Origin: Candidatus Omnitrophota bacterium
GTDB taxonomy: Bacteria > Omnitrophota > Gorgyraeia > JABMRN01 > RBG-13-46-9
Assembly: GCA_013203315.1 (NCBI GenBank)
Contig: JABMQJ010000001.1
Location: 16,382 to 80,381, forward strand
Length of the DNA stretch: 64,000 bases
Reading direction: 5' to 3'
Shown here: positions 11,334 to 46,814 of the stretch, piece by piece
How positions within the stretch are numbered: the stretch's first letter is position 1
How the letters are laid out: every line of letters begins with the position of its first letter
Notes under the pieces: generated by a model
What the model saw: only the letters and a program-made list of their open reading frames with translations
What the model was told of the DNA's origin: nothing
Database searches by the model: none
Program-made: the position numbers and the translations under genes

Positions 11334-11341
11334 CCCTTTAA

Positions 11342-21784: not shown

Positions 21785-21814
21785 AATGATACCTAATAGG
21801 TATCATTCTGTCAA
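21785..21814 (-). promoter_or_regulatory. promoter (TTGACA-17-TATCAT) with 11-1-11 perfect palindrome AATGATACCTA-A-TAGGTATCATT
   Basis: Minus strand reads CTCTTGACAgaatgatacctattaggTATCATtaat. The -35 overlaps the cusA stop codon. This is the same operator family as at 16967-16990. Confidence 0.5.
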
Positions 21815-24951: not shown

Positions 24952-24966
24952 GATACAACTCCTCGC

Positions 24967-26199: not shown

Positions 26200-26218
26200 T
26201 TTATTTTCCTCCCGGTCG

Positions 26219-27481: not shown

Positions 27482-27490
27482 GGTACCACC

Positions 27491-27772
27491 TCATATATTC
27501 TTCGTAAACCTCTTTAATAAATTTGTTATCTCGCCTATCTTCGTATACGTATCCCCTGTGCTTTTGCTCTTAAGCGCCCCGGCCACACAGCCTGCAAGGT
27601 GCTTACTAAAGACTTTCTCCCTTACCCTCATGAGAGCTCCGATGGTCGATTGGATCTGGGTCAGGATATCAACGCAATACCGACCATCATCGATCATCTT
27701 CTGCAGGCCACGAACCTGCCCCTCGATCTTCTTCAGGTAAATTATCTGCTCTTTATGGCTCATCTTTGCCAT
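27491..27772 (-). CDS. csoR: CsoR/RcnR-family metal-sensing transcriptional repressor
   Basis: 93 aa; motif GQVRGLQKMIDDGRYCVDILTQ...H...C is the CsoR-family metal-binding C-H-C pattern. Confidence 0.8.
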   Translation of the reverse strand: MAKMSHKEQIIYLKKIEGQVRGLQKMIDDGRYCVDILTQIQSTIGALMRVREKVFSKHLAGCVAGALKSKSTGDTYTKIGEITNLLKRFTKNI

Positions 27773-27825
27773 GGTAAAAGCCTCTCTTTCCGTGATACAA
27801 GTATACCATACCCCCCTACCCTATG

Positions 27826-27915
27826 TCAAGGGCTGGCGCTCACTATTTTTGCGGGTTTTACCCTACGGAATCAGCTGGTATTGGCCTGCGGCTTGGCACT
27901 TTCGCCGGAGCTCTT
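27826..27915. repeat. conserved ~90-bp divergent-promoter element, copy N1 (csoR / nifS intergenic)
   Basis: GTCAAGGG..CAC.ATTTTTGCGGGT..CCCTACGGAAT..GGTATTGGC.TGCGGCTTGGCA.TT..CGGAGC is about 80% identical to the copy at 35225-35345. The left end supplies the minus-strand -35 TTGACA for csoR (TTGACA-18-TATACT). Confidence 0.5.
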
Positions 27916-28030
27916 TCCGTTAGCCCTCCCCCTTCTATTGGTGCAACCTAGGCATAAAGCCCGCTAAAATAATTCGCTTGAAAAGTCCACTTATGTGTGT
28001 TATTAATATGTATTACGAAAGGAACGAATA

Positions 28031-29832: not shown

Positions 29833-29892
29833 AATATTATTCTATTTTTGATTTTTATTATAAAGAAGCTTATAACGCGGTAGGGTTTTGGA

Positions 29893-29920
29893 TAGGCACT
29901 CTTAAGTGTGCCCTGCTTAC
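29893..29920. repeat. REP-like hairpin element, copy 1 (AGGCAC-TCTTAAGT-GTGCCCT-GCTTAC)
   Basis: Lies between convergent nifU and the 29987-30304 ORF. Near-identical to copy 2. Confidence 0.5.
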
Positions 29921-29986
29921 TTGAAAAATACAAAATAAGATGGCTCTACTTGAATTATTTAAACAAATAGAGCCATCCCGAATGCT

Positions 29987-30304
29987 TTATTTCTTATTTC
30001 CTAAAAGAAATTCCGGATTCTTAATTATTGGGCCATATTCAGGGAACGGAAAAGTAACTGTTTCAAACACTCCGCAAAGAACTCTTCCGCCAAATTTGAA
30101 AATCCCACCTAATGGTCCCCACGTTATGGCACCAAGAATTCCATCCTTCTCATACCCATCTTGGATTCCATTAAGTATTTCAAGCGGGCTTGTAACGATG
30201 TTTGTCACACCTCTGTAAAGTTTTTTGGCGGCTAGATCAGCATAAGCTGCGGTAGCGCTAAATAACATTACACCGATAAGAAGCAGGATAATTAGCTTTT
30301 TCAT
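29987..30304 (-). CDS. small secreted protein (signal peptide), hypothetical
   Basis: MKKLIILLLIGVMLFSATAAYA signal peptide; Gly-rich; 105 aa. Confidence 0.4.
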   Translation of the reverse strand: MKKLIILLLIGVMLFSATAAYADLAAKKLYRGVTNIVTSPLEILNGIQDGYEKDGILGAITWGPLGGIFKFGGRVLCGVFETVTFPFPEYGPIIKNPEFLLGNKK

Positions 30305-30374
30305 TTTTTTACCTCCTTATTTTAAATATAGTATACCCAATGAAAATCAATACTGCAAATATACTTCAGTTATC

Positions 30375-30410
30375 CACAGGGTAGGGCACTCTTAAGTGTG
30401 CCCTGCTTGC
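30375..30410. repeat. REP-like hairpin element, copy 2 (CACAGGGTAGGGCAC-TCTTAAGT-GTGCCCT-GCTTGC)
   Basis: Overlaps the 3' end of the tautomerase gene. The stop codon TAA lies inside the hairpin loop (CTTAAG). Confidence 0.5.
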
Positions 30411-30595
30411 TTTCTGTCGCAAATTAACTGGCCGCCGACTCCAACGTTTTCCGGTGCATTTTCCTTGATTACCGCTACAATAACCGCGGGAGGTAACTTA
30501 TATGCCTTTACTGCTGCTTCAGTCACTTCTTTGATTAAAGCTCGTTTCACCTCTAAATCTTTTATCTTTGGTCCTTCCACTGTAATATTAGGCAT
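30392..30595 (-). CDS. 4-oxalocrotonate tautomerase family protein
   Basis: 67 aa, starts MPNITVE with the catalytic Pro1 after Met; beta-alpha-beta tautomerase fold. Confidence 0.7.
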   Translation of the reverse strand: MPNITVEGPKIKDLEVKRALIKEVTEAAVKAYKLPPAVIVAVIKENAPENVGVGGQLICDRKQAGHT

Positions 30596-30624
30596 TCTTC
30601 CCCCTTTTTTGGATTTTTACTCTT

Positions 30625-30691
30625 GTGCCATTTCAGAATCTGAACTCCTGTCTGCCGGCAGGTAGACAGGCTATTTTTGAAAATGGTTCAC
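30625..30691. repeat. intergenic repeat family, copy A (GC palindrome plus conserved core ..TTCAGATTCTGAAAtGG..)
   Basis: Plus strand reads GTGCCATTTCAGAATCTGAACTCCTGTCTGCCGGCAGGTAGACAGGCTATTTTTGAAAATGGTTCAC. It is an imperfect ~65-bp palindrome, about 30 nt upstream of the tautomerase ATG. Confidence 0.6.
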
Positions 30692-30747
30692 TGTCCTCAA
30701 TTTTAACGGTGTTTAAGTGGGTATACAGGGTGAGGATATGCTATGGC

Positions 30748-31173
30748 TCAGTCTACCTGATGCGCAGTCAAGAACATAGACTTCTCGAGAACAGTGAAAA
30801 AATCCTGATAAGACTCCGGATTATCGACAGCCCTAAGCCCAAATTGAGCATTTGCCCTAACCAATAGTTGCGTTTCTCCTCTGGGCCTTACCGTAACAGT
30901 CATCTTTAATAAAGTATGCCTTGTAAATTTTGATGCTGTTACAGAGCCCAAGCTTAAATCTGCTCTATCAATAACAAATTCTAAATCTTGAAGAGTGCTT
31001 ATTACTGTCCTAAGCATTTTTTTTCTATCGGTAGTATCAAAAGCCCTTGTTTGTATGCTACGCAATTGAACTTGGCTCTGTTCGGCATCAATTGTTCGCT
31101 GGGCAGTTGTTGTACAACCCGCTAAAGATAAAACGAAAAATAAAAGAAGAAGACCTCTTAACATTATTTTCAT
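30748..31173 (-). CDS. lipoprotein, hypothetical (paralog of 31170-31742)
   Basis: Lipobox LSLAGC. Shares the pattern Q.R..Q.R.F.T...L....LQD.EF..D...SLG.V.ASK with the adjacent gene. Confidence 0.5.
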   Translation of the reverse strand: MKIMLRGLLLLFFVLSLAGCTTTAQRTIDAEQSQVQLRSIQTRAFDTTDRKKMLRTVISTLQDLEFVIDRADLSLGSVTASKFTRHTLLKMTVTVRPRGETQLLVRANAQFGLRAVDNPESYQDFFTVLEKSMFLTAHQVD

Positions 31174-31742
31174 ATTTCCTGCCCTTCAAGGAATATTGCT
31201 TTTGATACTTTGTCGAAGAAACCTTGGTATAATTCTGGTCCTTTCAAAGTCTCCAGTCTAGAAACGTTTCCCAGTCTGTTCCAGACAATTCTCTGAAAGG
31301 TAGTGCGGACGATTAATTTATTTCCTTCGGCGTTTAGCTTACTAACAACGGATACTCTAATTTTCTGCTCTTTATCAATATAGTCAAAAGCGTTTGTATT
31401 TGTGCCTGAGAGTGCGGCGAGGGCAACTGCTGCGGTTGCTGCCGCAACCTGAACTGCATCTGTTGCATCTCTACTTTTTGAAGCTACAACAAGCCCTAAT
31501 TCTGTTTCGCTATCGTCAAGCGTAAAGCCCATATCTTGAAGAGCACCGGCGCAGGCTGAGAGTACTTCTGCTTCGTTTATCGTTTCAAATTGCCGCATTT
31601 GTAACTGGCGTACTTGCAGACTGTCCTCTGATAGGGTAAATAATTTTTTAGGGGTGGTAGCAATACAACCTGTTATAGAAATGCACAAAACAAGGAGTGA
31701 CGGTAAGATAAAGTCTTTTTTTAATTTTGTAACTTTAAGCAT
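31170..31742 (-). CDS. lipoprotein, hypothetical (paralog of 30748-31173)
   Basis: Lipobox ISITGC; same domain pattern as the downstream paralog; 190 aa. Confidence 0.5.
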   Translation of the reverse strand: MLKVTKLKKDFILPSLLVLCISITGCIATTPKKLFTLSEDSLQVRQLQMRQFETINEAEVLSACAGALQDMGFTLDDSETELGLVVASKSRDATDAVQVAAATAAVALAALSGTNTNAFDYIDKEQKIRVSVVSKLNAEGNKLIVRTTFQRIVWNRLGNVSRLETLKGPELYQGFFDKVSKAIFLEGQEI

Positions 31743-31744
31743 AT

Positions 31745-32143
31745 TTAAAATTTAGAAGCGTGATATGCAAAATCTCTTACTTTGCCCTCATTGTCAAACT
31801 TGATAACAATGGTCAAGGTTCTCTGCGTAGTCGATTTTGCTCCGGCGGTCCCAGGTGTTAGAAATTTTAGACCGGCATTGCTATCCGAATATACTATATC
31901 AGTAGCTATTTTATCGTAGACCCATACTTCCCGTCGCTGCTCATCAGTGGTTACAACATTGGGAGAACCTAATGTCTCTACAACCTTCGATGAGGGCATT
32001 CCGATCAAAATTTCACGCTGGACTTTGCCCACAGTTATCCTATCCCCGGTATCATCCTGCACTTCTCTTCTATGATAACTAGCTGACGCACATCCCATTA
32101 AGAATATTAAAGAAACAACTACTATAATAAGTTTTTTATCCAT
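31745..32143 (-). CDS. lipoprotein with BamE/SmpA_OmlA-like motif
   Basis: Lipobox LMGC; GMPSSKVVETLGSPN resembles BamE-family motifs. Confidence 0.45.
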   Translation of the reverse strand: MDKKLIIVVVSLIFLMGCASASYHRREVQDDTGDRITVGKVQREILIGMPSSKVVETLGSPNVVTTDEQRREVWVYDKIATDIVYSDSNAGLKFLTPGTAGAKSTTQRTLTIVIKFDNEGKVRDFAYHASKF

Positions 32144-32176
32144 GATTCCCCCCTATTTTCATTAGTATTGTTTTAT

Positions 32177-32205
32177 ATTTTAGTCTTGCCGGTATTGAAT
32201 GTCAA
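32177..32205 (-). promoter_or_regulatory. sigma70-type promoter of the three-lipoprotein operon (TTGACA-17-TAAAAT)
   Basis: Minus strand reads cTTGACAttcaataccggcaagacTAAAATataaaac, about 35 nt upstream of the ATG at 32143. Confidence 0.6.
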
Positions 32206-32237
32206 GCCTATTTAGCGATTCTCTATCTGAACTACCC

Positions 32238-32300
32238 TTCGACCGTTTCAGAATCTAAATTCCTACCTAACGGTAGGCAGGCCGGCAGGTTATTTTTGAA
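32238..32300. repeat. intergenic repeat family, copy B
   Basis: Plus strand reads TTCGACCGTTTCAGAATCTAAATTCCTACCTAACGGTAGGCAGGCCGGCAGGTTATTTTTGAA. It abuts the arfB stop codon and lies upstream of the lipoprotein promoter. Confidence 0.6.
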
Positions 32301-32723
32301 TTAGAAGTCCTCGCTTTTTAAACCATGCCTTGAACGTAGTTTTTTCTTTTCCGCCCTCTTCTTTTTATTCCTAAGCATCTTTTCTTTTGCTCTGCGGGAT
32401 CGCCGGCGTTTTTGCCTTCTTATCTTTTCTATCCTTTTTCTTTCTTCCGAATGCCTTCCCAGTATGTGCGCTTCGATTTTGCCCGTGAGGCGCCTGCGCG
32501 CTATAAATCTATTTAAAGCCTGCGAGCGCTCTTCCTGGCATTTTACCTCTATGCCGGTCGGCCCATGCCTAAGATGCACGCAGGTAGATACCTTATTAAC
32601 ATTTTGACCGCCCTTTCCGCCTGAACGGACAAACCACTCCTCCATGTCCTGTTCGCGGATACCAAGCTTCCGCATCTTCGCCTTCAGGGCTTCTTCTTTA
32701 CTGCTGCTCACACCGAATTGCAT
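32301..32723 (-). CDS. arfB: alternative ribosome-rescue factor ArfB (peptidyl-tRNA hydrolase, GGQ motif)
   Basis: GGQ motif in [34 protein letters not shown], plus a basic C-terminal tail; 140 aa. Confidence 0.8.
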
Positions 32724-32736
32724 AATTGAAATCCAC

Positions 32737-32787
32737 TTTTCGACCGTTTAAGAATCTGAACTCCTGCCTGCCGGCTTTAAAGTAACA
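32737..32787. repeat. intergenic repeat family, copy C (truncated right half)
   Basis: Plus strand reads TTTTCGACCGTTTAAGAATCTGAACTCCTGCCTGCCGGC. On the minus strand the core ends 14-23 nt before the arfB ATG. Confidence 0.55.
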
Positions 32788-32796
32788 AATCGATCA

Positions 32797-33162
32797 CTAG
32801 GCGGAATAGACTAAGAGAGCTCCGAAAGCTAAGGCCAAAAGACTGATCAGGCGCATGGATAAAATAGGTTTTCCCTGCCACCAGTCAAGATAGGTATATA
32901 TCGATTTTGGTTTTATCACAAGTAAAAGCACACCCTTTATGATCGACCAGATACCAAGTACCTTAATCAGTAATACTATCCTGCACTGCGGGGCAGCAAT
33001 TAAAAAGACGATACCGAAAAGAAGTGCCAAAATACCGCCGACCTTTAGCCTTTTTTCATTTCTCCAGAACGCAATATATCCTTTTAAAGTATTTTTCCTT
33101 ACTAAAAAAAGGATTCCAATAACCATAATAATTACACCAAAAAGCCTGACAACCATAACCAT
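32797..33162 (-). CDS. hypothetical small membrane protein
   Basis: 121 aa with 3-4 TM helices. Confidence 0.4.
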   Translation of the reverse strand: MVMVVRLFGVIIMVIGILFLVRKNTLKGYIAFWRNEKRLKVGGILALLFGIVFLIAAPQCRIVLLIKVLGIWSIIKGVLLLVIKPKSIYTYLDWWQGKPILSMRLISLLALAFGALLVYSA

Positions 33163-33183
33163 AAGTACCTCCCTTTTTTACTC

Positions 33184-33242
33184 TTCGACCATTTCAGAAT
33201 CTGAACTACTGTCTGCTAGCAGGTAGGCTCTACTTTGTCTTA
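33184..33242. repeat. intergenic repeat family, copy D
   Basis: Plus strand reads TTCGACCATTTCAGAATCTGAACTACTGTCTGCTAGCAGGTAGGCTCTACTTTGTCTTAA. It overlaps the stop codon of the upstream zinc-ribbon gene. Confidence 0.55.
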
Positions 33243-33734
33243 AAACCCAAGAAACATTAGCCACCTGGCACGCCTTCCCAGTAAATCAGCTCGTTCAACC
33301 CTGTTAATATCTCGCAGTAATTTATCACGCGTTTCCGTTATGCCACGTTCAGTAATTTTTAGCTTCTCATATTCTATTCCGCCGGCTTTAATAAACTCAA
33401 CGGCTTTCTGCAATTCTCCTTCATCGAAAAACGTCCCATGTTTTTTACACTTATCGACAACAATTCCCGAGTGATGCATGTAGTTTTTGCGCCACATCAA
33501 TCTACTACAACGGGGGCATTTGCAATACTTTACTTTTTCCGTACGCCCCAAAGGTTTATATACCTTGTGTAAATCACGTAGCTCACTCACGGTAAAGACT
33601 TCCGGAATTATCTTCAATACCTGTTTTTCTTCGAACTTATCTACCCATACACCTTTACATTTTGGACAAATGTCGGTTTCGATACCGTTTTCCTTGAACA
33701 CCTTCATTTCAATATCACATTTGGGACATTTCAT
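33240..33734 (-). CDS. double zinc-ribbon (zf-TFIIB-like) protein
   Basis: Two CPxC...CPxCxGxWxD modules (CPKCDIEM...CPKCKGVWVD; CKCPRCSRLM...CKKHGTFFDEGEL). Confidence 0.5.
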   Translation of the reverse strand: MKCPKCDIEMKVFKENGIETDICPKCKGVWVDKFEEKQVLKIIPEVFTVSELRDLHKVYKPLGRTEKVKYCKCPRCSRLMWRKNYMHHSGIVVDKCKKHGTFFDEGELQKAVEFIKAGGIEYEKLKITERGITETRDKLLRDINRVERADLLGRRARWLMFLGF

Positions 33735-33807
33735 TTTCCTCTCCTATATAAACTTCTCCCTGCCTATTTAAAATCGCGGACGTTATAAAGCTACCGCCGG
33801 GACAGGC

Positions 33808-34473
33808 CTAAGATCGTGCTTTGCCCCGCCCCATACCTTCCCGGAGGCCAACCACCAGAAATAACATTCCGACTATCTGGATAAGATGAAAAATACCGTT
33901 GTTATCAAATTTCCAAATAAGCCGGGCAGCAATATCCTTGTTAGCTTGAAAAATTGCGGCGATGATTGTGAAGAGAACCCCGATCGCTATTAATCCGGCG
34001 CCGCCGAGTCGCTTTCGCAAGGCCAACCAGCTGTAAGCGATCAAAACAAAGGTCATGGTAATTGCCTCGTAAATAATAAAAACCAGAAAAGTTCTCGGAA
34101 AAAGCAGGTTCACCGCGTAAAAGGCTACCCCAATCGCAAGCATGACCGGAAGCATCCGACGGACAGCAGCGCGGCCCAGCATGTCGTAGATGGCCCCAAG
34201 GATAAATAAAACAACCACGAAACCCAATGCCAAAAAGAGTGGTTGCCACAGAATATTCTCTAATGCCTCGGACATTTTAAGGCCATGCAGTAATGCCCCC
34301 GATGCGGACGAAAAGGTGACCAGCCCAAAGAACCATGACCAGATATTTGTTCTCTGCATATCACGCTGCTTGGTTCGGCGCAGGTAAAAGAGGCAAGCCG
34401 CGGCAACTAAGGCTAAAACCGCATCTGTCACGGCTGTCGTTTGCTCTATTGGTATATTAGTGATTTCCAGCAT
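33808..34473 (-). CDS. hypothetical polytopic membrane protein
   Basis: 221 aa with about 6 TM helices. Confidence 0.4.
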   Translation of the reverse strand: MLEITNIPIEQTTAVTDAVLALVAAACLFYLRRTKQRDMQRTNIWSWFFGLVTFSSASGALLHGLKMSEALENILWQPLFLALGFVVVLFILGAIYDMLGRAAVRRMLPVMLAIGVAFYAVNLLFPRTFLVFIIYEAITMTFVLIAYSWLALRKRLGGAGLIAIGVLFTIIAAIFQANKDIAARLIWKFDNNGIFHLIQIVGMLFLVVGLREGMGRGKARS

Positions 34474-34509
34474 TAAATTCGTAACCTTAGACCGTTTTCG
34501 ATAAAATGA

Positions 34510-35148
34510 TTATCTATCTATCAGTTTACTGACCGTCTCCATGCAATGATTCACAATCTCTTTAATAATATTTAACATATCAAGATATCGGACCTTTGCC
34601 CATTCATCACAAATTCCCTTTGCTGACCTATCTATATGGTTAAGGCGACTTTTTTCTATTAATGCGTAGAGGGATGATTTATTTTTTAAAATATTTTTGC
34701 CTAACTTCCTATCATTAGTCTTCACCGCCACAATTGTAACTGACAAAATCTCTTCTATATTGTTACATAGCTCCTTATATTCTTGCAATGCTTTGTCACT
34801 AAATAACAATTTTTCACTAACTTTATACTCAATTCGTTCTACTAAATCTACACATAGATCTCCCATCCTCTTAATTGCGCCGATAATGCTTACCAAATCA
34901 ATGACTATTTTTTTAGCTTTGCCTGATGATTTCTTTTTGGAAATTTCGATTGCTAAGGTAGTTAAATTAGTATAAGCTTCATTAATTTTTGTTTCATTCT
35001 TAAGCACCTGATCTAAGAGCTTGATATCGTTCTTCATCAAACCATTAAAGTTAGTACGAAACATTATTTGAACCCGTTCTAACATTTCTATGGTCTCTTG
35101 TCTTAATGAAGCTATTTTTCTTAATTCAGCTTTATTTAATTTGGCCAT
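34510..35148 (-). CDS. PhoU-like domain protein
   Basis: 212 aa all-helical protein with two PhoU-like repeats (ETKINEAYTNLTTLAIEI; IEYKVSEKLL...). Confidence 0.45.
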   Translation of the reverse strand: MAKLNKAELRKIASLRQETIEMLERVQIMFRTNFNGLMKNDIKLLDQVLKNETKINEAYTNLTTLAIEISKKKSSGKAKKIVIDLVSIIGAIKRMGDLCVDLVERIEYKVSEKLLFSDKALQEYKELCNNIEEILSVTIVAVKTNDRKLGKNILKNKSSLYALIEKSRLNHIDRSAKGICDEWAKVRYLDMLNIIKEIVNHCMETVSKLIDR

Positions 35149-35162
35149 AGTTTTACTCCCTC

Positions 35163-35230
35163 TTTTACCGTCTCAGAATCTAAAACCTGCCTACTACTAA
35201 TATTGTAGGCTTGGCGTTGTTCAAAGTCAA
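35163..35230. repeat. intergenic repeat family, copy E (degenerate)
   Basis: Plus strand reads TTTTACCGTCTCAGAATCTAAAACCTGCCTACTACTAATATTGTAGGCTTGG. It is in the 5' leader of the PhoU-like gene, downstream of TTGACT-17-TACAAT. Confidence 0.5.
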
Positions 35231-35345
35231 GGGGCAAAAAAGTGACATTTTTGCGGGTACTGCCCTACGGAATGAGAGGGTATTGGCGTGCGGCTTGGCA
35301 TTTAACGACGGAGCCCTGCCAATACCCTCTCATTCCGTTGATTGG
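35225..35345. repeat. conserved divergent-promoter element, copy N2 (PhoU-like / nitroreductase intergenic)
   Basis: Shares the same conserved blocks as N1. It also contains a perfect 20-bp inverted repeat, CGGAATGAGAGGGTATTGGC...GCCAATACCCTCTCATTCCG. Confidence 0.5.
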
Positions 35346-35438
35346 CAGGGACTCGCAAAAATATGCTTTTATATTGAGGGGTTTTTTGTTATAATTTTAG
35401 TCATTCAAACCGATAAACTATCAAGAAGGAGGAAATCA

Positions 35439-36095
35439 ATGAAGATATTAATTTTAATAGTAGCGATGTGCATGATGGCAGCGAATGTGTTTGCCGAGGG
35501 GGATATGGCAACGCAGGCAAGTCCTTCGGTGACGATAAAACTTCCGACGCCCGAGACGAGCGGAGGCAAACCGTTGATGCAGGCGCTGAAAGATAGAAAA
35601 TCGAGTAGAAACTTTAGTGACAAGGAGTTACCACAGCAGGTATTATCCGACCTTTTGTGGGCAGCGTTCGGCATAAACAGGCCGGATTCAGGAATGCGCA
35701 CGGCACCCACAGCGCATAATATGCAGGAAATCTATATTTTTGTGGCAATGTCCAAAGGCCTTTATCTTTATGAACCAAAGCAGCATATATTGAAGCTGAT
35801 GCTAGCCGAAGATATACGCGCTGTAACCGGTATGCAGGAGTTTGTGGCAACAGCACCGGTGAACCTTATCTATGTGGCGGAATATTCCAAGATGGCCAAT
35901 ATAGGCAGTGAGAAAGACTTTTACTCAGCTACAGACACCGGATTTATTTCTCAGAATGTATATTTATATTGCGCATCGAAGGGCCTGGCAACAGTCGTAC
36001 GCGGCTGGGTAGACAGGAAAGCTCTGGGAAAAGCAATGAACCTACGCCCCGACCAGAAGATAATCCTTGCCCAGACGGTCGGGTACGAAAAATAA
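35439..36095 (+). CDS. nitroreductase-family protein with N-terminal signal peptide
   Basis: Starts at ATG after AAGGAGGAAATCA. MKILILIVAMCMMAANVFAEG signal peptide, then a nitroreductase fold (DLLWAAFGINR, TAPTAHNMQ). The ORF-track N-terminal extension is spurious. Confidence 0.7.
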   Translation: MKILILIVAMCMMAANVFAEGDMATQASPSVTIKLPTPETSGGKPLMQALKDRKSSRNFSDKELPQQVLSDLLWAAFGINRPDSGMRTAPTAHNMQEIYIFVAMSKGLYLYEPKQHILKLMLAEDIRAVTGMQEFVATAPVNLIYVAEYSKMANIGSEKDFYSATDTGFISQNVYLYCASKGLATVVRGWVDRKALGKAMNLRPDQKIILAQTVGYEK

Positions 36096-36107
36096 CGAAG
36101 AGTTATT

Positions 36108-36143
36108 CACAGGGCAGGGCGCTCTTGGGGGTGCCCTGCTTGC
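36108..36143. repeat. REP-like hairpin element, copy 3 (CACAGGGCAGGGCGC-TCTTGGGGG-TGCCCT-GCTTGC)
   Basis: Lies between the convergent nitroreductase and NYN genes. The 3' end abuts the NYN stop codon. Confidence 0.5.
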
Positions 36144-36643
36144 TATAGCACGCCTTTACCCTCTAGATATTCCTCGTAATAATCAGTTACTTTTCTGTTT
36201 TTCGTTGCGCTAAACGACTTATCCGCATGCATGGCCGGTTTATTGGCATGTTTTTTGGTTTTTTGCAAGAATGTTGGGTATTCAACCCGCGCACCGTGCA
36301 CGCGAGAGCCATTTCGTACCCGGTTATCATGCGATATGACAGTTATGCTAGATGGCTCCTTCGAATTCTTCACCATGCTTATTATGCGATCATCCGCTGC
36401 TTCTTTGGCGCGCGTAAAAACGCAGTCAATGCCGCCTATCTTTGTGCGGGAATAATCCATAAAGTCGACATCCCTCCCGTCAAATACTATAATAATTTCC
36501 GCATTAACACGGCTACGCTTCCATCCCGCCACATGCATTGCCAGGGCGCTCCTGGCTTCGGCAAGGCTTTCCTTAAGCTTCGCCGTGAGCTCCGAAATCC
36601 GGTAAATAACGTTATATCCGTCTAGTATAAATATCTTTTTCAT
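36143..36643 (-). CDS. NYN-domain protein, YacP/Rae1-like predicted ribonuclease
   Basis: ILDGYNVIY N-terminus plus PIN-like acidic residues; 166 aa. Confidence 0.7.
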   Translation of the reverse strand: MKKIFILDGYNVIYRISELTAKLKESLAEARSALAMHVAGWKRSRVNAEIIIVFDGRDVDFMDYSRTKIGGIDCVFTRAKEAADDRIISMVKNSKEPSSITVISHDNRVRNGSRVHGARVEYPTFLQKTKKHANKPAMHADKSFSATKNRKVTDYYEEYLEGKGVL

Positions 36644-36655
36644 ATCCGTGAGTTA

Positions 36656-36693
36656 TCTTTCGACCGTTTCAGAATTTGGGCTCAACGCAGAAC
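36656..36693. repeat. intergenic repeat family, copy F (core only)
   Basis: Plus strand reads TCTTTCGACCGTTTCAGAATTTGGGCTC. It lies in the 5' leader of the NYN gene, 13 nt from ATG and downstream of a TATAAT box. Confidence 0.55.
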
Positions 36694-36721
36694 AGTGTAT
36701 TTAAATTATACCCCTAAAATA

Positions 36722-36768
36722 GAAACGCCTCAAGGAAAACCTTGAGGCGTCACGGTACACTGTTTCGT
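36722..36768 (-). terminator. rho-independent terminator of 36776-37603, overlapped by the TTGAGG-17-TATAAT promoter for the NYN gene
   Basis: Minus strand reads CGCCTCAAGGttttCCTTGAGGCG followed by TTTCTATTTT. The same region reads ccTTGAGGcgtttctattttaggggTATAAT. Confidence 0.6.
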
Positions 36769-36775
36769 TCAAATT

Positions 36776-37603
36776 TTATTCTATATCCTCGTCTTTCCCG
36801 TTAATGAATTGCAACATGGATGCTCTGTTTTTTTGAATACGGTTTGCAATAAGTTTCAGGGACCCTTCGTCTAACTCCGGTTTTTCTGTCTCGGTTTCGG
36901 ATTGCGCGGGTGTTTCTGTAATCTTGGTGGTTACTGCAATTGTGCAACCCGTGTTACGAGACGCCTCGAGATCGCTTGAAAAAAAGTTAACCATATACGG
37001 CTTAGGGTCGTGGTACACAATCGTCTGAACAAGCCAAGCGTCTTCATACCACATTTCACCCTTATCAAGAGGTTCTCCCGGCTGTGGCAGATGTGGCTGA
37101 TTATATACAATTAACTGGACAAGCCGGCCATCCTTATAGTTATACTCGGGATAACCGTCTATTTCGCTGGGATCTATCGGAAGGTACTCCCTTATATCCA
37201 TATTGGGAAACTTCAGGTCCACCGGGTATTTTTCGTATTCTTTTTTTGGTATCAACGGTTCTCTGGGCAACTCTATTATCCTGGCAATCGGGTTTTCTAA
37301 GCCTGGCTTCGGAGCCAAACCGCGTACGGGATCGGACCCTATGTCTTTATTAGGGTATTTAATTATCTCGAAACCCTTTTCGGGCAGCTCGATATTATCC
37401 CCTATTTCTTTTTTCACGATCAACTCTTTTTTCGTTTCTAGCACTTCCTTAAACTGTTTCACGGATCTGCTCGGAATTTCTTTGAGTTCTTTATCTTTAT
37501 ATGCATTCGCTTTGCCTTTTTCGGCAAGGCAAGGACTCTGAGAAACCACAATACCCAAACAGATTACGAGCACGATAACCTTAATTGTCATTCTGCCATT
37601 CAT
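36776..37603 (-). CDS. secreted Pro/Glu-rich protein, hypothetical
   Basis: Signal peptide MNGRMTIKVIVLVICLGIVVSQSPCLA; 275 aa. Confidence 0.4.
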   Translation of the reverse strand: MNGRMTIKVIVLVICLGIVVSQSPCLAEKGKANAYKDKELKEIPSRSVKQFKEVLETKKELIVKKEIGDNIELPEKGFEIIKYPNKDIGSDPVRGLAPKPGLENPIARIIELPREPLIPKKEYEKYPVDLKFPNMDIREYLPIDPSEIDGYPEYNYKDGRLVQLIVYNQPHLPQPGEPLDKGEMWYEDAWLVQTIVYHDPKPYMVNFFSSDLEASRNTGCTIAVTTKITETPAQSETETEKPELDEGSLKLIANRIQKNRASMLQFINGKDEDIE

Positions 37604-37733
37604 TTCATTTACCCCCTTCTTGCTTACGGTTTTTAAAACTCTTTACTTTCGTGTCAAAAAAATAACTCGAATCTCATACTCTATAACAAAATCACAGCTT
37701 GTTTACTCCTGTTATTTTCTGACTATTTTATTC

Positions 37734-39167
37734 TTAATTTTGCTTACTTCTTATCATTTGAGCTTCAGGGCTTCTCGGGTATTTTCGTAATACAAGCGCA
37801 TAATAGTGCTCTGCTTCCTTTGTATTATTCAGTCTTTCTTCATATATAATTCCCGTAGCATACAGTGCCATGCTTGCAAACGTAGACTCGGGATATTTAC
37901 GAGAGACCTTTTGGAAAGTCTCTATCGCTTTCTCGGACATGCCAAGATAGTTGTAATAGGCACCTATAAAAAGGAAGATCTGTGGCTTATGGCCCAAACT
38001 CGGATGCATGGCCATTATCGCTTCCAGCGTCCTAATTCCCTGCAAGTGTTTACTTCTGTCCTTTGTCTTTATCGCATTGTCTATTAACTCAATCGCCTTC
38101 CTAAGGTCAAGAGCGGCTTCTTTCGGCTCGAGGTCAGATATATATAATGGGGCGGGCCTTAAGAGCTCTCTTGTCCTGTATTTTCCATTACTGATTAAAA
38201 GCGCAACCTGGACTTTCTCTCCGATTTCATAGAACTCCGTCATTTCCTGCCATTCTTTTTCCAATAGCTGGCGCGGGGCCATGGGTGCCTCCCCCTTAAA
38301 TACTTCTGTTGCCTCCCCGCCACCTAGTATTACCTGCTGCTGTTTAAGCGCTCCTTCTGGTATGAATGTTGACACAACCTTTACCCTGCCGTTTAATACA
38401 CCAAGCCGCGTCATCATTGAGGGCTGTGCGGAAACATCTACTAAAAAATCAGTTCCCAGCGCCGTGGCTGTGGCTTCGGGAGTTGCCATGACAAAACGTG
38501 ACCCCTTGAATTTTTTGCTTAAACGCACCAGCGTTTTACCTTTTTTGAGGTTGTATACTGTCTTGCCGGGCACATATTTTGGCAATAACTTCGCTATTTT
38601 TATTTCAGAATTCTGCTTAATCCTGACCCTGTATTTATTTGTATGCGCTATGTCAACAAAAGATCCACTGTCAACGGTTAGCGTATCGTTCTTGCCGAGT
38701 AGTAGCCCTTTGGTTCCTTTGGCCCACTTACGCCCCCTATGACTGTAAATCATTACTTTGCCCTTTACCGTCACAATCTGTACGGGCTGGACCACTAAAT
38801 ATGTAAGAACCCCGTATGCCGACACAAACAAAAGGAGCGTTACGACAACCCTTGCAAGCATGGGCGCAGGCAGGACAAAGACTTCCCGGGTTCTTTGAAG
38901 AACGCGAGTTACAATGAAACCTATCCTGTTTTCTTCCCTGCTTTTTAAAGTGTTACGCAGTTTTTGATTGAAGGCCCGGTCGAAAGAGGTAGACAGCTTT
39001 TCTCTATCCGCATGCCTAATGACCAGATTCGAATTCTTTAATAAAAGGGCTGTTTTCCTGCAGGATTCGCACTCGCTAAGATGGCTCTCTACCCTTTCCC
39101 TTTCAGGGAGAGAGCACCTCTGATCTATATATCTCGATAATAATTCGAAAGGCATTTTGTGCTTCAT
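37734..39167 (-). CDS. anti-sigma factor (zf-HC2 N-terminus, TM, FecR-like domain, C-terminal TPR repeats)
   Basis: N-terminal HLSECESCRK; one TM helix; FecR-like beta domain; C-terminal TPR repeats (YYNYLGMSEKAIETFQKV...). Overlaps the sigma factor gene by 4 nt. Confidence 0.65.
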   Translation of the reverse strand: MKHKMPFELLSRYIDQRCSLPERERVESHLSECESCRKTALLLKNSNLVIRHADREKLSTSFDRAFNQKLRNTLKSREENRIGFIVTRVLQRTREVFVLPAPMLARVVVTLLLFVSAYGVLTYLVVQPVQIVTVKGKVMIYSHRGRKWAKGTKGLLLGKNDTLTVDSGSFVDIAHTNKYRVRIKQNSEIKIAKLLPKYVPGKTVYNLKKGKTLVRLSKKFKGSRFVMATPEATATALGTDFLVDVSAQPSMMTRLGVLNGRVKVVSTFIPEGALKQQQVILGGGEATEVFKGEAPMAPRQLLEKEWQEMTEFYEIGEKVQVALLISNGKYRTRELLRPAPLYISDLEPKEAALDLRKAIELIDNAIKTKDRSKHLQGIRTLEAIMAMHPSLGHKPQIFLFIGAYYNYLGMSEKAIETFQKVSRKYPESTFASMALYATGIIYEERLNNTKEAEHYYALVLRKYPRSPEAQMIRSKQN

Positions 39168-39811
39168 TTTACGCCACTTTTTTGCGGAATTTTAATTTTC
39201 TTTATAAACTGTTTCCGTGCCCTTGCAAGCCGCGAAGAAATTGTCTTCATATTTGTTTTCAGCACTTTGGCTGCCTCTTCGTAAGAAAGGCCTTCTATTA
39301 CGCAGAGCGCAATGACATCCCTGTAAAGCGGATGAAGGCTTTTCAGGGCATTTTCTATCGCTTCCTTGAGTTCCTTATTTTTCACGAAGGAATCTGCCGA
39401 AAACCCGTCTTTCGTCAATACGCCTTCGAGGTTGATATCCATGTCCCCTTTTCCCGCTCGACCGGACAAAGATACCTGCCGCATCGAACTCCTTTTCTTT
39501 AATTCGTTTTTTGCCAGATTCGAAGCTATTGTATAAATCCAGGCCTTAAAAAGCCCCCTGGGCTCGTATCTATTGATGTTAAGGTATATGTTTATAAAAA
39601 CTTCCTGCGTAAGCTCTTCGGCAACCGCCCTATCGCCTATCTTTCTGTTGATGAAATTAAATATTCTTTCCTTGTACGCATTATACAATTCATCAAAGCA
39701 GGCCCGGTCGCCTTCCCTGAATTTCCTTACCAGGGCATCGTCTTTATTCATTACCCTCTCTATATATATTAAACAATATTTTGTGCCGAAAACTCCACGT
39801 TCTATAGACAT
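39164..39811 (-). CDS. ECF (sigma-24-type) RNA polymerase sigma factor
   Basis: Region 2 (YNAYKERIFNFINRKIGDRAVAEELTQEVFINIY) and region 4 (SYEEAAKVLKTNMKTISSRLARARK). Start is probably the internal MNKDD near 39751. Confidence 0.8.
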   Translation of the reverse strand: MSIERGVFGTKYCLIYIERVMNKDDALVRKFREGDRACFDELYNAYKERIFNFINRKIGDRAVAEELTQEVFINIYLNINRYEPRGLFKAWIYTIASNLAKNELKKRSSMRQVSLSGRAGKGDMDINLEGVLTKDGFSADSFVKNKELKEAIENALKSLHPLYRDVIALCVIEGLSYEEAAKVLKTNMKTISSRLARARKQFIKKIKIPQKSGVK

Positions 39812-39840
39812 TCTGTATCAGCTTGCTTTTTTTGTCAATA

Positions 39841-39880
39841 AAAAAAACGGGACTGGTTTTTACCAAATCCCGTTTTTTTT
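39841..39880 (-). terminator. bidirectional rho-independent terminator
   Basis: Sequence A8-ACGGGACTGGtttttaCCAAATCCCGT-T8. On the minus strand the hairpin is followed by a T8 run, after the stop of 39910-41463. Confidence 0.75.
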
Positions 39881-39909
39881 GTTATCTGCGATTTAACGCT
39901 GATTGTTAC

Positions 39910-41463
39910 TTATTCATCTTCCTCTTCGCTTCCTGTCTCATCTTCGGCATCGTATGAGCTGAAGGCCTCCAGGAGAATTATGGCGCCTTTACCGCCTGAA
40001 TAAACAGCACCCGGCGTTTCCCGGAGAATACCTTTAAATGCTTCCTGCAACTTATTTTTGTGCTGCATCCATTCGTTTTCCAACAACGAAATCTTGTTAA
40101 CCCGGCCTGTGTTGAAGTTTTTTGCGAAATCCATTTTTGCGGCAGGTACTTTTCCGCGTGTCCCAAACTTTTCGGCTTTTTCAAAAAGATTATTTGGCTT
40201 TGATGCGGATCCCCCCTCCTGTATCGGGCTTTGGTTTTTGCCGGTCTTATAGGCGTAAATCGGTTGCGCTTCATATGCTGCTTTTTGATCTTCGATAACC
40301 TGTGGCTTATACAATTTAATATCTACGCTTTCGGTTCGCTCATCGTTTAATTTTCCGGCAATCTTTTGCTTGGTAACATTGAGGCCAACGAAAATTTCCT
40401 TTATTTCTGTTATTCTTCCGGGCTCTACGCCGGGTGGCCGCGTATATGTTACTGCTATTGTCCAATCATCATTGGTAATGGTAAGGGTGTATCCTCCGCC
40501 GTAAGCTGATTCTGACAAGCTCAAAACAGTATCTCCAAACTGTTGCGGCATGGGTTGTCCCCAATAGTTTCTGGCAAACCACACCAGTATGACTCCTAAA
40601 AGCTCGCGCATTTCACCGTCCATGCGGGATACGCCAAAACCGCTACTTTCCGGGCCTTCATACCGCGAATACCAGCCCCCGTGAGGCAGCCTATAAAAGT
40701 TTCTGTATTCTTCTATATCATCCAAATCATTGAACTCGCCATCCCCGTTTGTATCAAGGAGATTCTTTGCGAGTTCGTCCAAAAAGTCTCGTAAATCCTC
40801 GTCGATTTGACGCTGAAAAAGTTCGGCGAAGGATTCTTCAACGGGATCCCTTGCATCAACGGGATCCCTTGCATCAATAATAATAAGCTTGCTGTTTTCG
40901 TCGTCCCACTTAATCGTAAAACCATCACCGATCGGTATCTTCATAGAGACACCTTCGTCTTTCTCTTTATCCCCGTCCGGATCTCCGTTATTACCTTTAA
41001 GCGCTTCGAGCGCGCTTTCAAGATCTCTTAATCTAATATCTAATTTTTCACGAATATCTTTTTCCGAATCGTCATCCTGATATATACTGATTATATCTTC
41101 CAGAATATCCGAGAGCCCCTTGCTTGGCAGTCCCTTGTTTAGCAGATTTTCGATCTCTTTATTCAGCAAGCCTTTGTATGTTTCAAGGATTTTTGGCAAA
41201 GGCGGATCATTCTTCGGCTTTATCGTTATGGACAAGTTATCTCTGGATTTCTCAGAGAGACTATTTTTCAATTCCAGGTACTGACTCACCAGGGCTTCCC
41301 GTTGGGGGTTATATACAGCGACAATCTTGCCGGAAACCTTTGCCTTGGGCTTCTCCGAAATGCTTTTTGCGTGCGCAAAATCACAGGGAAGCGTCGAAGA
41401 GACAAAAGCCACCACCACTGACATCGCTAAAATCCTATTAAATATTCTTTTCCTGTTTAACAC
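39910..41463 (-). CDS. secreted acidic protein with internal DARDPV tandem repeat, hypothetical
   Basis: GTG start. Signal-like N-terminus; Asp/Glu-rich; an 18-nt direct DNA repeat at 40840-40877 encodes DARDPVDARDPV. Confidence 0.4.
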   Translation of the reverse strand: MLNRKRIFNRILAMSVVVAFVSSTLPCDFAHAKSISEKPKAKVSGKIVAVYNPQREALVSQYLELKNSLSEKSRDNLSITIKPKNDPPLPKILETYKGLLNKEIENLLNKGLPSKGLSDILEDIISIYQDDDSEKDIREKLDIRLRDLESALEALKGNNGDPDGDKEKDEGVSMKIPIGDGFTIKWDDENSKLIIIDARDPVDARDPVEESFAELFQRQIDEDLRDFLDELAKNLLDTNGDGEFNDLDDIEEYRNFYRLPHGGWYSRYEGPESSGFGVSRMDGEMRELLGVILVWFARNYWGQPMPQQFGDTVLSLSESAYGGGYTLTITNDDWTIAVTYTRPPGVEPGRITEIKEIFVGLNVTKQKIAGKLNDERTESVDIKLYKPQVIEDQKAAYEAQPIYAYKTGKNQSPIQEGGSASKPNNLFEKAEKFGTRGKVPAAKMDFAKNFNTGRVNKISLLENEWMQHKNKLQEAFKGILRETPGAVYSGGKGAIILLEAFSSYDAEDETGSEEEDE

Positions 41464-41687
41464 TTTTTTAACTCCGTTCTAAAGTGGGTAAAAAAAATAC
41501 CCCTCACACACGGTGTGCCTTGTATATACAAGTGTACCATAAATTAAAGGGTCTTGTGGGGGGAAATATCTTACTTTTTTATAGCCTAACAAGGTTAAGT
41601 GGCATTAGGAATTATTCTAGGGACGGTTCTCGCTAAGTCTTTTATTTACAGTTGGTTGCGGATTGCTTCATCTACTCTTGTACCGTT

Positions 41688-41719
41688 TCGGGCGCTCTTG
41701 GGGGTGTCCTGCTTGTTCA
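41688..41719. repeat. REP-like hairpin element, copy 4 (GGGCGC-TCTTGGGGG-TGTCCT-GCTTGTTCA)
   Basis: Near-identical to copy 3. It overlaps the last codons and TGA stop of 41717-41950. Confidence 0.5.
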
Positions 41720-41950
41720 CTTCCCCTTTGACCCTCTAATTGCCCAGAGGATAAGACGGATAAGTAAATAGACGGGGTATCCGAGAAGCATAAACATGAA
41801 CGCGAATGTGACTATTTGCTGACCGGCTTGTTCACCAACTATTGCAAACTCGGTCATACGCAGGGCAAATATGACAATTGCGGATATGACCACGATGCCG
41901 AGCAATATGAGCCCTTCCTTCTTTATGATTTTTTTTATACCATCTTTCAT
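41717..41950 (-). CDS. small membrane protein, hypothetical
   Basis: 77 aa with 2 TM helices; SD AAGGAG. Confidence 0.35.
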   Translation of the reverse strand: MKDGIKKIIKKEGLILLGIVVISAIVIFALRMTEFAIVGEQAGQQIVTFAFMFMLLGYPVYLLIRLILWAIRGSKGK

Positions 41951-41964
41951 CCAGACATCTCCTT

Positions 41965-41978
41965 GCCTGCCGGCAGGC
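41965..41978. repeat. GC palindrome GCCTGCCGGCAGGC (same palindrome as in the intergenic repeat family) directly upstream of the SD of 41717-41950
   Basis: Perfect palindrome; the same CTGCC(T)GCCGGCAGG motif is seen in copies A, B and C. Confidence 0.5.
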
Positions 41979-41993
41979 AGACTTTAATTAGGC

Positions 41994-42028
41994 CCCAGGG
42001 ACAGTTCTTAATCTGTCCCTTGCCTGAA
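41994..42028. repeat. REP-like hairpin element, copy 5 (CCAGGGACAG-TTCTTAAT-CTGTCCCT-TGCCTG)
   Basis: Same architecture as the other copies (AGGGnnn-TCTTAAnT-nnnCCCT-TGC). Lies 25 nt after the stop of 42053-42280. Confidence 0.45.
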
Positions 42029-42052
42029 CCGTTCCTATTTTCAATTTTTGAC

Positions 42053-42280
42053 TTACAGCTCGAACTTGCTTTTATCTACTCTCGCGGTTTTAGAAAATTT
42101 TTCTTTAACACCATCCAGAGTATCCTGGAGAGCCTTAAATATTTTCTCCACCTCTTCCGGCGTGGATTCGTAACCGGCACCCGATAAATTACCCAACAGT
42201 TCTATCTTCTTTATCGCATTCGTTACCCTCTGCGTCGCGAGTCTTTTAAACTTATCATGTTTGCTTTCAGATTCTGCCAT
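42053..42280 (-). CDS. small hypothetical protein
   Basis: 75 aa helical protein; strong SD AAGGAGGAAAAT. Confidence 0.35.
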   Translation of the reverse strand: MAESESKHDKFKRLATQRVTNAIKKIELLGNLSGAGYESTPEEVEKIFKALQDTLDGVKEKFSKTARVDKSKFEL

Positions 42281-42315
42281 ATTTTCCTCCTTTTTTTAAA
42301 ATCGTTATTGTTTAG

Positions 42316-42360
42316 CTTTCGACCGTTTCAGAATCCGGAAATTCTTATCAGCTCGTGCAT
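42316..42360. repeat. intergenic repeat family, copy G (variant palindrome AGAATTTCCGGATTCT)
   Basis: Plus strand reads CTTTCGACCGTTTCAGAATCCGGAAATTCTTATCAG. On the minus strand the core ends about 36 nt before the ATG of 42053-42280. Confidence 0.55.
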
Positions 42361-42373
42361 ATCTTCCTCCTAT

Positions 42374-42886
42374 CTAATTTTCGGTTACATGCTCGATTAC
42401 GCTGCTTTTTGCGATGTCACCCGGGGATGTAGTGTCTGCTGTCGGGACTTCTGGGACTATGTCGAGCCCGCCGGAGTTGAAAGCCTCGTAGCAGAGCTCC
42501 GAACAGAAATAATCTTTATCCTTTTGCCACGTATTGGCGATATCTTCAAAGGGGAGTTTAAGCTTTGAGAGAAGTTTTAAAAAACCCAGAAAAAATACGC
42601 CAAGGTAGTCATATTTATTGTTTAACGCGTCTACTAAATACGATATTGTGTTGTTTATATCAAAGCTATGCCCTTCTTTTATTCTATAAACATCATAGCC
42701 CTGTTTTATTTTCCTTATATCACGGGCCCTTACGCCGCCTTTTGTTATCGCTTCTATCACAAGATTCATTTCCGGGGATACACAAACAGCGACGTGTGAA
42801 TATTTACTACCAGTTCCCCACTGTATGATCTTAGATATCCCGTCTTCTCCTTCAAATAAAAGTATATCGCCGGTTTTCATCTGCAT
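42374..42886 (-). CDS. YiiX/YaeF-like permuted papain-fold (NlpC/P60 superfamily) hydrolase
   Basis: Motifs GDILLF...SHVAVCV and a conserved Cys/His pattern; 170 aa. Confidence 0.5.
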   Translation of the reverse strand: MQMKTGDILLFEGEDGISKIIQWGTGSKYSHVAVCVSPEMNLVIEAITKGGVRARDIRKIKQGYDVYRIKEGHSFDINNTISYLVDALNNKYDYLGVFFLGFLKLLSKLKLPFEDIANTWQKDKDYFCSELCYEAFNSGGLDIVPEVPTADTTSPGDIAKSSVIEHVTEN

Positions 42887-46781: not shown

Positions 46782-46814
46782 GTATACTAATTATACCCCT
46801 AAAAATAAATAGCC

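Follow-up and report, generated by a model that had tools for sequence, protein, structure and literature searches.

What kind of element separates a run of small, unrelated genes on the chromosome of a Candidatus Omnitrophota bacterium? The window analysed here is a 64-kb stretch of that chromosome (contig JABMQJ010000001.1). All coordinates refer to this stretch unless a locus is named, and loci written as L with three digits belong to compared relatives. Between 30.6 and 42.3 kb the window carries seven intergenic copies, A to G, of one short repeat, all on the minus (coding) strand. An earlier note on this DNA had proposed that they are boundary elements of a gene-cassette array, resembling either attC sites or miniature inverted-repeat transposable elements (MITEs), or else a shared regulatory or RNA-processing signal of a regulon, perhaps linked to a nearby extracytoplasmic function (ECF) sigma factor. 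We favour, with a probability of roughly 0.55, a lineage-specific mosaic family of the repetitive extragenic palindrome (REP) or terminal inverted repeat (TIR) type, tied to a transposase resembling the REP-associated tyrosine transposases (RAYTs) and clustered in a plasticity zone. The identification of the repeats as integron cassette sites is not supported.

Both pattern and profile searches bore out the seven copies, their positions and their common strand. Allowing up to two mismatches, TCTGARAYGGTMRAARR matched eight times in the window against 0.55 matches expected, and seven of the eight were copies A-G; TTCAGATTCTGAA, with at most one mismatch, found four sites for a chance expectation of 0.15. 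An nhmmer profile built from the seven copies recovered those seven (E values from 1.6e-8 to 6e-6) together with weak partial matches at 41673-41689 and 34484-34497, and no copy in the remaining 52 kb of the window. The core had been described as a near-identical 28 nucleotides (nt), which overstates its uniformity: the part truly common to all copies is the right-hand 19 nt, ATTCTGAAACGGTCGAAAG, and the full 29-nt consensus is matched within three mismatches by B, C and D only. The 13-bp palindrome TTCAGA-T-TCTGAA, which the same description had as a perfect feature of the core, is indeed perfect in A and D, but B and C each depart from it at one position and E, by inspection, at two, and F and G lack it. 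Proximity to start codons held for six of the seven copies, which end 12-35 nt (corrected distances) upstream of one. The exception is copy B, where a TTGACA-17-TAAAAT promoter-like site lies between the core and the ATG.

Scans of public collections with ATTCTGAAAYGGTCGAARR returned 34 genome and 76 metagenome matches, nearly all by chance and mostly in coding sequence, and viral collections gave chance coding matches only. The genuine matches of the strict 19-mer scans came from a sister species from the Black Sea (L008; its genome was compared as L008/L116/L124/L125), from Omnitrophica RBG_13_46_9 (L020, identical to L078) and from the short contigs L069 and L082. Matches in L012 and L013 seemed intergenic and were treated as chance, there being no downstream gene and no second copy. 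Further copies outside the window were collected from L116/L125, L082, L069 and L020; the sister-genome orthologues of C, E, F and G are called C', E', F' and G', and the second copy in L082 is L082b. No copy was found in the more distant relatives L119, L121, L128, L129 and L131, nor in relatives whose ArfB is 83-85% identical or whose anti-sigma protein is 87% or 49% identical. Since genuine matches are few and these relatives are without copies, the family is young or narrowly distributed. All 15 non-redundant copies, excluding the L020 transposase flank, lie on the gene-sense, G-rich strand, and the left flank in L020 is the sole inverted copy. In L082, two copies enclose one small open reading frame (ORF); the second is an orphan that adjoins the convergent 3' end of NifU and precedes no gene.

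A module map of all intergenic regions revealed that the element is a mosaic, with truncated and tandem partial copies present. Some copies carry an A-rich arm, TTTTCAAAAATAG, which adjoins or contains the stop codon of the upstream gene. A second module is the GC palindrome (CCTG)n(CAGG)n, a separate unit that also occurs alone, or in its place another hairpin such as CCTACC/GGTAGG; a third is the left arm CAGGAGTTCAG; and the fourth is a sequence-specific box of ~19-32 nt, CAGG..AGATTCTGAAACGGTCGAAAG, with the variant ..TCGCAAACGGTACAAG. The GC palindrome had been attributed to most copies, and this stands for A (complete) and C (half-length), but B, D and E have other hairpins and F and G have none. 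Immediately 5' of the unit, D, B, E, G', L069 and L116 have GTAG, which F, G and C lack. The element lacks the make-up of a MITE, as imperfect inverted arms are confined to A, C' and, in part, L082b, and no copy is flanked by duplicated bases.

The conserved box behaves as a sequence and not as a structure. Rfam 15 produced no match at the gathering score across the whole window and none at any copy (30.3-42.5 kb) at E values up to 5, and a known RNA family was rejected. About 10 of 15 copies have the only recurrent hairpin, the imperfect palindrome GTTCAG-ATT-CTGAAAC, and it shows no covariation: in the 15-copy alignment no pair has changed on both sides, and 73.3% are paired compared with 75.8% in shuffles, so that a structured RNA hairpin was rejected. 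In the same alignment the 3' (right) arm is near-invariant while the 5' (left) arm drifts, and the lack of compensation points to a box recognised in a sequence-specific manner by a protein, as opposed to a helix. Single-strand minimum-energy folds gave two small independent hairpins with modest z-scores, those of C, D and L082b being no better than shuffles (z = +0.65, +0.08 and -0.29). The inverted ends described for copy A do exist, but the long hairpin that they form appears in centroid folds alone (those of A and C') and is missing from the minimum-energy folds. A coding reading of the box, ..DSETVE(E/S/R)* with TAA or TAG in 8 of 14 copies, was discarded for lack of a start codon, a consistent upstream frame and a clear three-base periodicity.

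A link with a transposase comes from RBG_13_46_9, a genome that shares no other nucleotide similarity with the window. The L020 ORF is a Y1 HUH transposase (Pfam Y1_Tnp, PF01797, E = 1.3e-17, above the cut-off), and its best NCBIfam model is the REP-associated tyrosine transposase (NF047646), at 64.6 bits versus 21 for IS200; no solved structure matched it by sequence. An 18-bp perfect inverted repeat of a core variant, TTGTACCGTTTGCGATTT / AAATCGCAAACGGTACAA, encloses the gene, and the canonical ATTCTGAAACGGTCGAAAG lies 22 nt past the downstream arm. REPtrons are defined by a Y1-class transposase gene that lies between inverted copies of a dispersed repeat, and TIRtrons by the same arrangement with longer inverted repeats. 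The variant 19-mer AAATCGCAAACGGTACAAG is found unchanged in the sister genome (L116, ~7268-7290), in leader position behind the promoter module of copy E, and the variant GAAACGGTACAAGAG occurs at 41673-41690 in the window and in L082. The left flank in L020 is identical to the L069 copy at 25 of 32 nt, including CAGGTTGAAC (by inspection).

Comparison with the sister genome, which shows 82-95% nucleotide identity to the window in common blocks, revealed that the array lies in a variable zone and that homology breaks at the repeats. The shared blocks are the anti-sigma gene with the next gene, a terminator, a TATAAT promoter and copy F; the gene for a 121-residue protein; copy C with ArfB; and NifU/IscS. 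These blocks (anti-sigma to F, 121-residue, ArfB, NifU/IscS) are 87-95% identical and everything between them differs. The sister order is PhoU, NYN, 75-residue, 94-residue, 582-residue, sigma, anti-sigma, 348-residue, copy F', then Memo/AMMECR1 and others; in the window NYN and PhoU come after F, and the 75-residue gene comes after the C92 peptidase. Order or context has changed for PhoU, NYN, the 75- and 121-residue genes and ArfB. Blocks of homology correspond approximately to a Shine-Dalgarno site plus ORF. Homology breaks about 5 nt past core F, at 33179, 2 nt 3' of the copy D 19-mer (which ends at 33182), inside the GC palindromes on either side of ArfB (it starts at 32775, within the palindrome of copy C), or directly after stop codons. 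The core remains with the downstream gene or with neither neighbour; what the upstream ORF (ArfB, 94-residue) retains is limited to the A-rich arm and half a palindrome. An upstream copy is kept in both genomes by the 75-residue gene, ArfB and PhoU despite different neighbours. The 121- and 94-residue genes are each found with and without an upstream copy, the sister 121-residue gene being without copy D, and the sister NYN gene has no detectable upstream copy where the window NYN has copy F. Gene order also differs among relatives that do not carry the motif. The unit-wise variation anticipated by the earlier note is therefore present, with single genes re-ordered between the two genomes, although the 121-residue gene, ArfB and others are conserved Omnitrophota genes and not accessory cargo. 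These breaks, together with the variant that forms the inverted ends of the L020 gene, also lend support to its description of the repeats as MITE-like boundary elements.

Further differences between the genomes were seen away from the copies. A remnant of the 5' end of the window 77-residue ORF, aaggaaatgtttagATGaaagatgatataaag, lies upstream of the sister NYN gene (L125, 1050-1138) and looks like a rearrangement scar. At ~21800-27960 the window has a Cus-like RND efflux operon, comprising OEP, membrane-fusion protein and ACR_tran genes together with a CsoR-type repressor, that is absent in the sister, where homology jumps from 27960 to 21823.

According to the REP/TIR interpretation, a Y1 HUH enzyme of the IS200 superfamily, RAYT- or TIRYT-like and encoded elsewhere in the genome, would recognise and nick one strand of the box. 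The same enzyme would spread box copies, its own gene carrying the box as inverted repeats at both ends. Copies would be seeded on the G-rich strand, the expected lagging-strand template, which may explain why they are co-oriented with the genes; a preference for the lagging-strand template is established for IS200/IS605 and is extended here to this repeat. Box copies would then be combined with local hairpins into mosaics and would accumulate in one plasticity zone between conserved flanks, where direct repeats around single genes would be sites, or at least markers, of deletion, insertion and re-ordering between sister species. We infer from these comparisons that a transposase mobilises the copies, that the genome of the window encodes one, and that the repeats may cause, and not merely mark, the rearrangements.

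REPtron/RAYT systems were reportedly described by Nunvar in 2010 and by Bertels & Rainey in 2011. In such systems RAYT or TIRYT genes are flanked by REPs or long TIRs, moderately abundant TIR families and clustered REP families occur, and repeats can supply stop codons (PMC3733652, PMC5581495); the term 'TIR repeats' is that of Di Nocera et al. 2013 (PMC3733652), with TIR families in dimers or clusters. The Omnitrophota element resembles them as a short extragenic multicopy repeat within the 20-40 nt range (seven copies plus 2 partial ones), in the Y1_Tnp gene with inverted repeat copies found in L020, in its sequence variants, in the joining of units to other stem-loops, and in repeats that abut or supply stops. 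Clustering is a further likeness, the T. roseum GTAG-23 family being a known clustered one.

Several observations weigh against this interpretation or set the element apart from known systems. The copy number is low and local: classical REPtrons have tens to hundreds of copies genome-wide, often as inverted dimers, whereas the 64 kb holds one cluster of seven in 12 kb, all of them direct and gene-sense, with no inverted doublets (REPINs) in the array. The box is asymmetric, where REPs are palindromic units with an unpaired GTAG (or CGTC) tag, and GTAG is found in some copies only. The position 12-35 nt before start codons is unlike that of classical REPs, which lie near the 3' ends of upstream ORFs (PMC3733652), and is one where an expression signal would be expected. 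The 19-mers of B, F, G and L020 are identical while their flanks share nothing, which suggests selection on the box, and a cis-regulatory function would account for this equally well. The transposase link comes from a single locus in another genome, where 20 consecutive N interrupt the ORF; the NCBIfam RAYT score of that ORF, 64.6, is below the curated equivalog cut-off of 80, and a tblastn search for RAYT homologues over the window and the related loci compared found L020 only and no other Y1 gene. The strict 19-mer has one match in the GTDB representative of the sister species, with the proviso that degenerate copies escape the pattern and that this metagenome-assembled genome is incomplete. 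Across the array, contigs from five samples of one population show 100% identity to the window, which gives no hint of current activity. In addition, Omnitrophota are not among the phyla described for REPtrons or TIRtrons.

Of the competing explanations, the one to be taken most seriously, though we consider it unlikely, is that the box works in cis at the RNA level, in a 5' leader or between cistrons, either as a site of processing or as one bound by a protein or small RNA, so that every small gene would have its own control of translation or stability. Selection for that role would keep the box whatever its origin, and such a role is compatible with a REP origin. The uniform sense orientation would be explained, as would the fact that 11 of the 15 non-redundant copies (by count) end 10-35 nt before a start. 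Matches to sigma70-like promoters (TTGACT-17-TACAAT for E; a terminator and TTGAGG-17-TATAAT for F) precede E and F, and likewise E' and F', which would thus lie in a leader, and the retained copies of the 75-residue gene, ArfB and PhoU and the identical 19-mers within otherwise unrelated flanks fit as well. By inspection, all 15 copies have an invariant AUU with a purine two positions upstream, which could fit the RN|WUU consensus of RNase E-type cleavage. However, the empty Rfam scans and the lack of covariation are set against this, a promoter follows B and the L020 copy, and no gene lies downstream of L082b. No common function unites the genes that a copy precedes, the box is absent before the same genes in distant Omnitrophota (L119, L121, L131), and the orthologous copies C/C', E/E' and G/G' diverge no slower than the adjacent coding sequence. 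The same sequence moreover forms the inverted ends of a transposase gene. A related proposal, in which a local transcription factor or the ECF sigma at 39164-39811 would use the box as a DNA operator or promoter element, appears very improbable. The TTCAGA-T-TCTGAA dyad of A and D, a -10-like TA after TTCAGA at a constant 19-nt spacer, and the presence of an ECF sigma/anti-sigma pair within the zone would speak for it, but the dyad is missing or imperfect in the other copies, the geometry to promoter-like sites varies, and a box 12-13 nt from the ATG would leave no leader if transcription started after it. The idea of an ECF-sigma regulon is not supported: no copy lies upstream of the sigma operon, where (upstream of 39811) a terminator and an ordinary TTGACA-17-CAGAAT are found without a box. 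Promoters of ECF or MerR type, or of sigma70 type with a 19-nt spacer, were rejected for inconsistent geometry as well as for the absence of a copy before the sigma gene, and no conserved element was found 16-17 nt downstream of TGAAAC in the copies.

The cassette proposal has the appearance of the locus in its favour. Like a cluster of attC sites lacking an integrase (CALIN), the array consists of small same-strand ORFs of variable content, with a repeat of ~50-70 nt with inverted arms ending shortly before the next ORF. It differs in having no RYYYAAC/GTTRRRY boxes (R''/R' sites) and no conserved bulged hairpin (attC sites being 57-141 nt), in a conserved part that does not move with the upstream ORF, and in core genes, several with their own promoters and terminators; no IntI was found among the 40 window proteins scanned. 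In the R' test on the seven copies and eight from relatives, GTTCAGA and ATTTAGA carry C or T where GTTRRRY needs a purine, and the outer arms GTTTT...GAAAC read GTT...AAC on both strands, the reverse of attC polarity. The attC/CALIN identification is accordingly not supported. Cassette sites of another recombinase, with exchange either at the GC palindrome or immediately past the 3' end of the core, could be envisaged from the single-gene units between direct repeats, the precise breaks in the palindrome or a few nt past the core, the orphan terminal copy beside a conserved flank in L082, and one compensating change in the outer arms (CCGTTTT/GAAACGG in C' for CCATTTT/GAAATGG in A). We nevertheless regard this as distinctly improbable: no tyrosine or serine recombinase is among the scanned proteins, shared units have moved without the repeat (the sister 121- and 94-residue genes, with no upstream core, and NYN), the breaks are not at one fixed position of the element, the genes are conserved in Omnitrophota with an order that varies in motif-free relatives too, and the arrays are identical in five samples. 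Hardly more credible is plain local duplication or gene conversion of a spacer, without enzyme or function, in the course of ordinary island turnover. The restriction of copies to 12 kb, the truncated and tandem partials (e.g. the tail of B and a truncated copy at L116 9409-9428), and sister indels without a core at their edges (e.g. the Cus-like operon, 21.8-27.9 kb) agree with it, but it leaves unexplained the box that frames a transposase gene in the otherwise dissimilar RBG_13_46_9, and neutral decay would not be expected to keep the 19-mer identical between unrelated flanks. We attach similarly little weight to a bolder version of the transposase link, in which box copies would act as functional ends for a Y1 transposase and a gene between direct copies would be cut out as single-stranded DNA and re-inserted beside another copy. 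IS200/IS605 elements and their derivatives, the palindrome-associated transposable elements (PATEs), share the Y1 HUH superfamily, sub-terminal hairpins, strand-specific copies and the absence of target-site duplications with the repeat; in IS200/IS605, however, the ends are not mutual inverted repeats, and no recognisable pair of left and right ends surrounds the window copies. If the bolder version were true, the array would be a cassette system driven by a RAYT-like HUH enzyme and not by an integron integrase, shuffling single core genes within a chromosomal hotspot and giving each a common leader.

Bacterial interspersed mosaic elements (BIMEs) of E. coli, and the Neisseria intergenic mosaic elements (NIMEs)/dRS3 and minimal mobile elements of Neisseria, are likewise mosaic intergenic elements that combine palindromic units with other conserved motifs, and they too have different genes between conserved flanks in relatives with breaks at the repeats. 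Their sequences are unrelated to the present repeat, the palindromic units of BIMEs alternate in orientation, and in the Neisseria minimal mobile elements it is transformation and flank homology that drive turnover. As far as our searches show, REP/RAYT-type repeats are new to Omnitrophota, a phylum known almost only from metagenomes; literature searches on integrons or attC in Omnitrophota found nothing relevant. The family is unusual for its kind in being co-oriented outside the transposase locus, in lying ahead of start codons and in occupying one zone of re-ordered conserved genes. Should the transposase link hold in the genome of the window, the locus would offer a compact natural case for studying a possible part of domesticated Y1 transposases and their repeats in restructuring gene order and supplying shared leaders. 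Such arrays can also be mistaken for integron cassette arrays.

The coordinates of the copies and of other repeats in the zone are collected in Table 1. The window is otherwise ordinary Omnitrophota chromosome, with Nuo/hydrogenase subunits, thiamine and haem biosynthesis, GreA, NifU/IscS and the Cus-like efflux operon. Pfam confirmed the gene identities proposed earlier for the tautomerase, ArfB (RF-1), PhoU, NYN (NYN_YacP) and the ECF sigma/anti-sigma pair (the latter of FecR type), and further identified a Zn-ribbon protein, DUF6962, a nitroreductase (plus strand), a C92 peptidase and DUF2490; no recombinase, integrase or transposase was found among the 40 window proteins scanned. The minus strand carries nearly all window genes, with a plus-strand GC skew of -0.11 throughout, and the same-strand layout is for that reason not special to the array.

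Table 1 Repeat copies and related features of the array (window coordinates unless a locus is named; distances run from the end of the 19-mer or core to the ATG)
Feature	Coordinates	Strand	Make-up	Distance and downstream gene
Copy A, complete mosaic	30618..30691	-	outer arm GTGAACCATTTTCAAAAATAG, GC hairpin CCTGT[CTAC]CTGCCGGCAGACAGG, core AGTTCAGATTCTGAAATGGCACAAGAGTA	25 nt, tautomerase
Copy B, 5' part	32225..32300	-	TTCAAAAATAA directly 3' of ArfB stop, then CCTGCCGG, hairpin CCTACC-gtta-GGTAGG	
Copy B, 3' part	32225..32300	-	core, then truncated second left arm GTAGTTCAGAT	92 nt, lipoprotein, promoter between
Copy C, 5'-truncated	32733..32775	-	half palindrome GCCGGCAGGCAGG, core with G-to-T change	13 nt, ArfB
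Copy D	33179..33228	-	GCCTAC-CTGCTAGCAG-ACAGTAG, then core	19 nt, 121-residue membrane protein
Copy E	35158..35210	-	hairpin GCCTAC-N10-GTAGGC, then degenerate core TTTTAGATTCTGAGACGGTAAAAGAG	12 nt, PhoU-like
Copy F	36655..36687	-	only right 19-mer canonical	13 nt, NYN/YacP
Copy G	42314..42341	-	canonical right 19-mer, divergent left arm TTTCCGG	35 nt, 75-residue gene
Variant core	41673..41690	-	GAAACGGTACAAGAGTA, fused to D3-type hairpin; sub-family of the inverted ends of the L020 Y1 gene	
Degenerate core remnant	34484..34497	-	GAAAACGGTCTAAGG; weak, E = 1.2	10 nt, DUF6962
Stand-alone GC palindrome	41964..41977	.	CCTGCCGGCAGGCA	upstream of 77-residue ORF
D6 copies, window	35247-35362, 27845-27917			
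D6 copies, sister genome	L116 6918-7079, 10451-10620; L125 ~120-260			
D3 hairpins	29878-29921, 30368-30411, 36101-36144, 41674-41717		GCAGGGCAC..GTGCCCTGC, directly 3' of stop codons	

Other mobile-type repeats, D6 and D3, share the 27.8-42.4 kb zone, the rest of the window being repeat-poor. The D6 family is MITE-like: its terminal inverted repeats are ATTTTTGCGGGT/ACCCGCAAAAAT, and a perfect inverted repeat of 21 nt, ACGGAATGAGAGGGTATTGGC, lies further in. Population contigs end at or beside its copies, at 27801-27803 (~40 nt from the copy at 27845) and at 35267 (within the other copy), as a multicopy element would lead one to expect, and the promoter-like site of copy E starts just past the right end of a D6 copy. 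D3 is a hairpin family; two of its copies are followed by a DnaA-box-like TTATCCACA or TTATTCACA (30371-30379, 36104-36112), and one is fused to the variant core. The terminator tail and TATAAT module upstream of copy F (36696-36734) are duplicated before another gene at 46781-46819, with 79% identity. A TTGACT-17-TACAAA promoter-like site at 7875-7925 has a box-like spacer, ATTCTGTGAAAAATGG, ~10 nt from a possible ATG, which is probably a coincidence. The more distant relative L131 has its own unrelated repeat, GTCCTGCGACCGAAGGGA, after stop codons around its ArfB neighbourhood (10367-10459 and 11305-11340), and lineage-specific intergenic repeats may be common in Omnitrophota.

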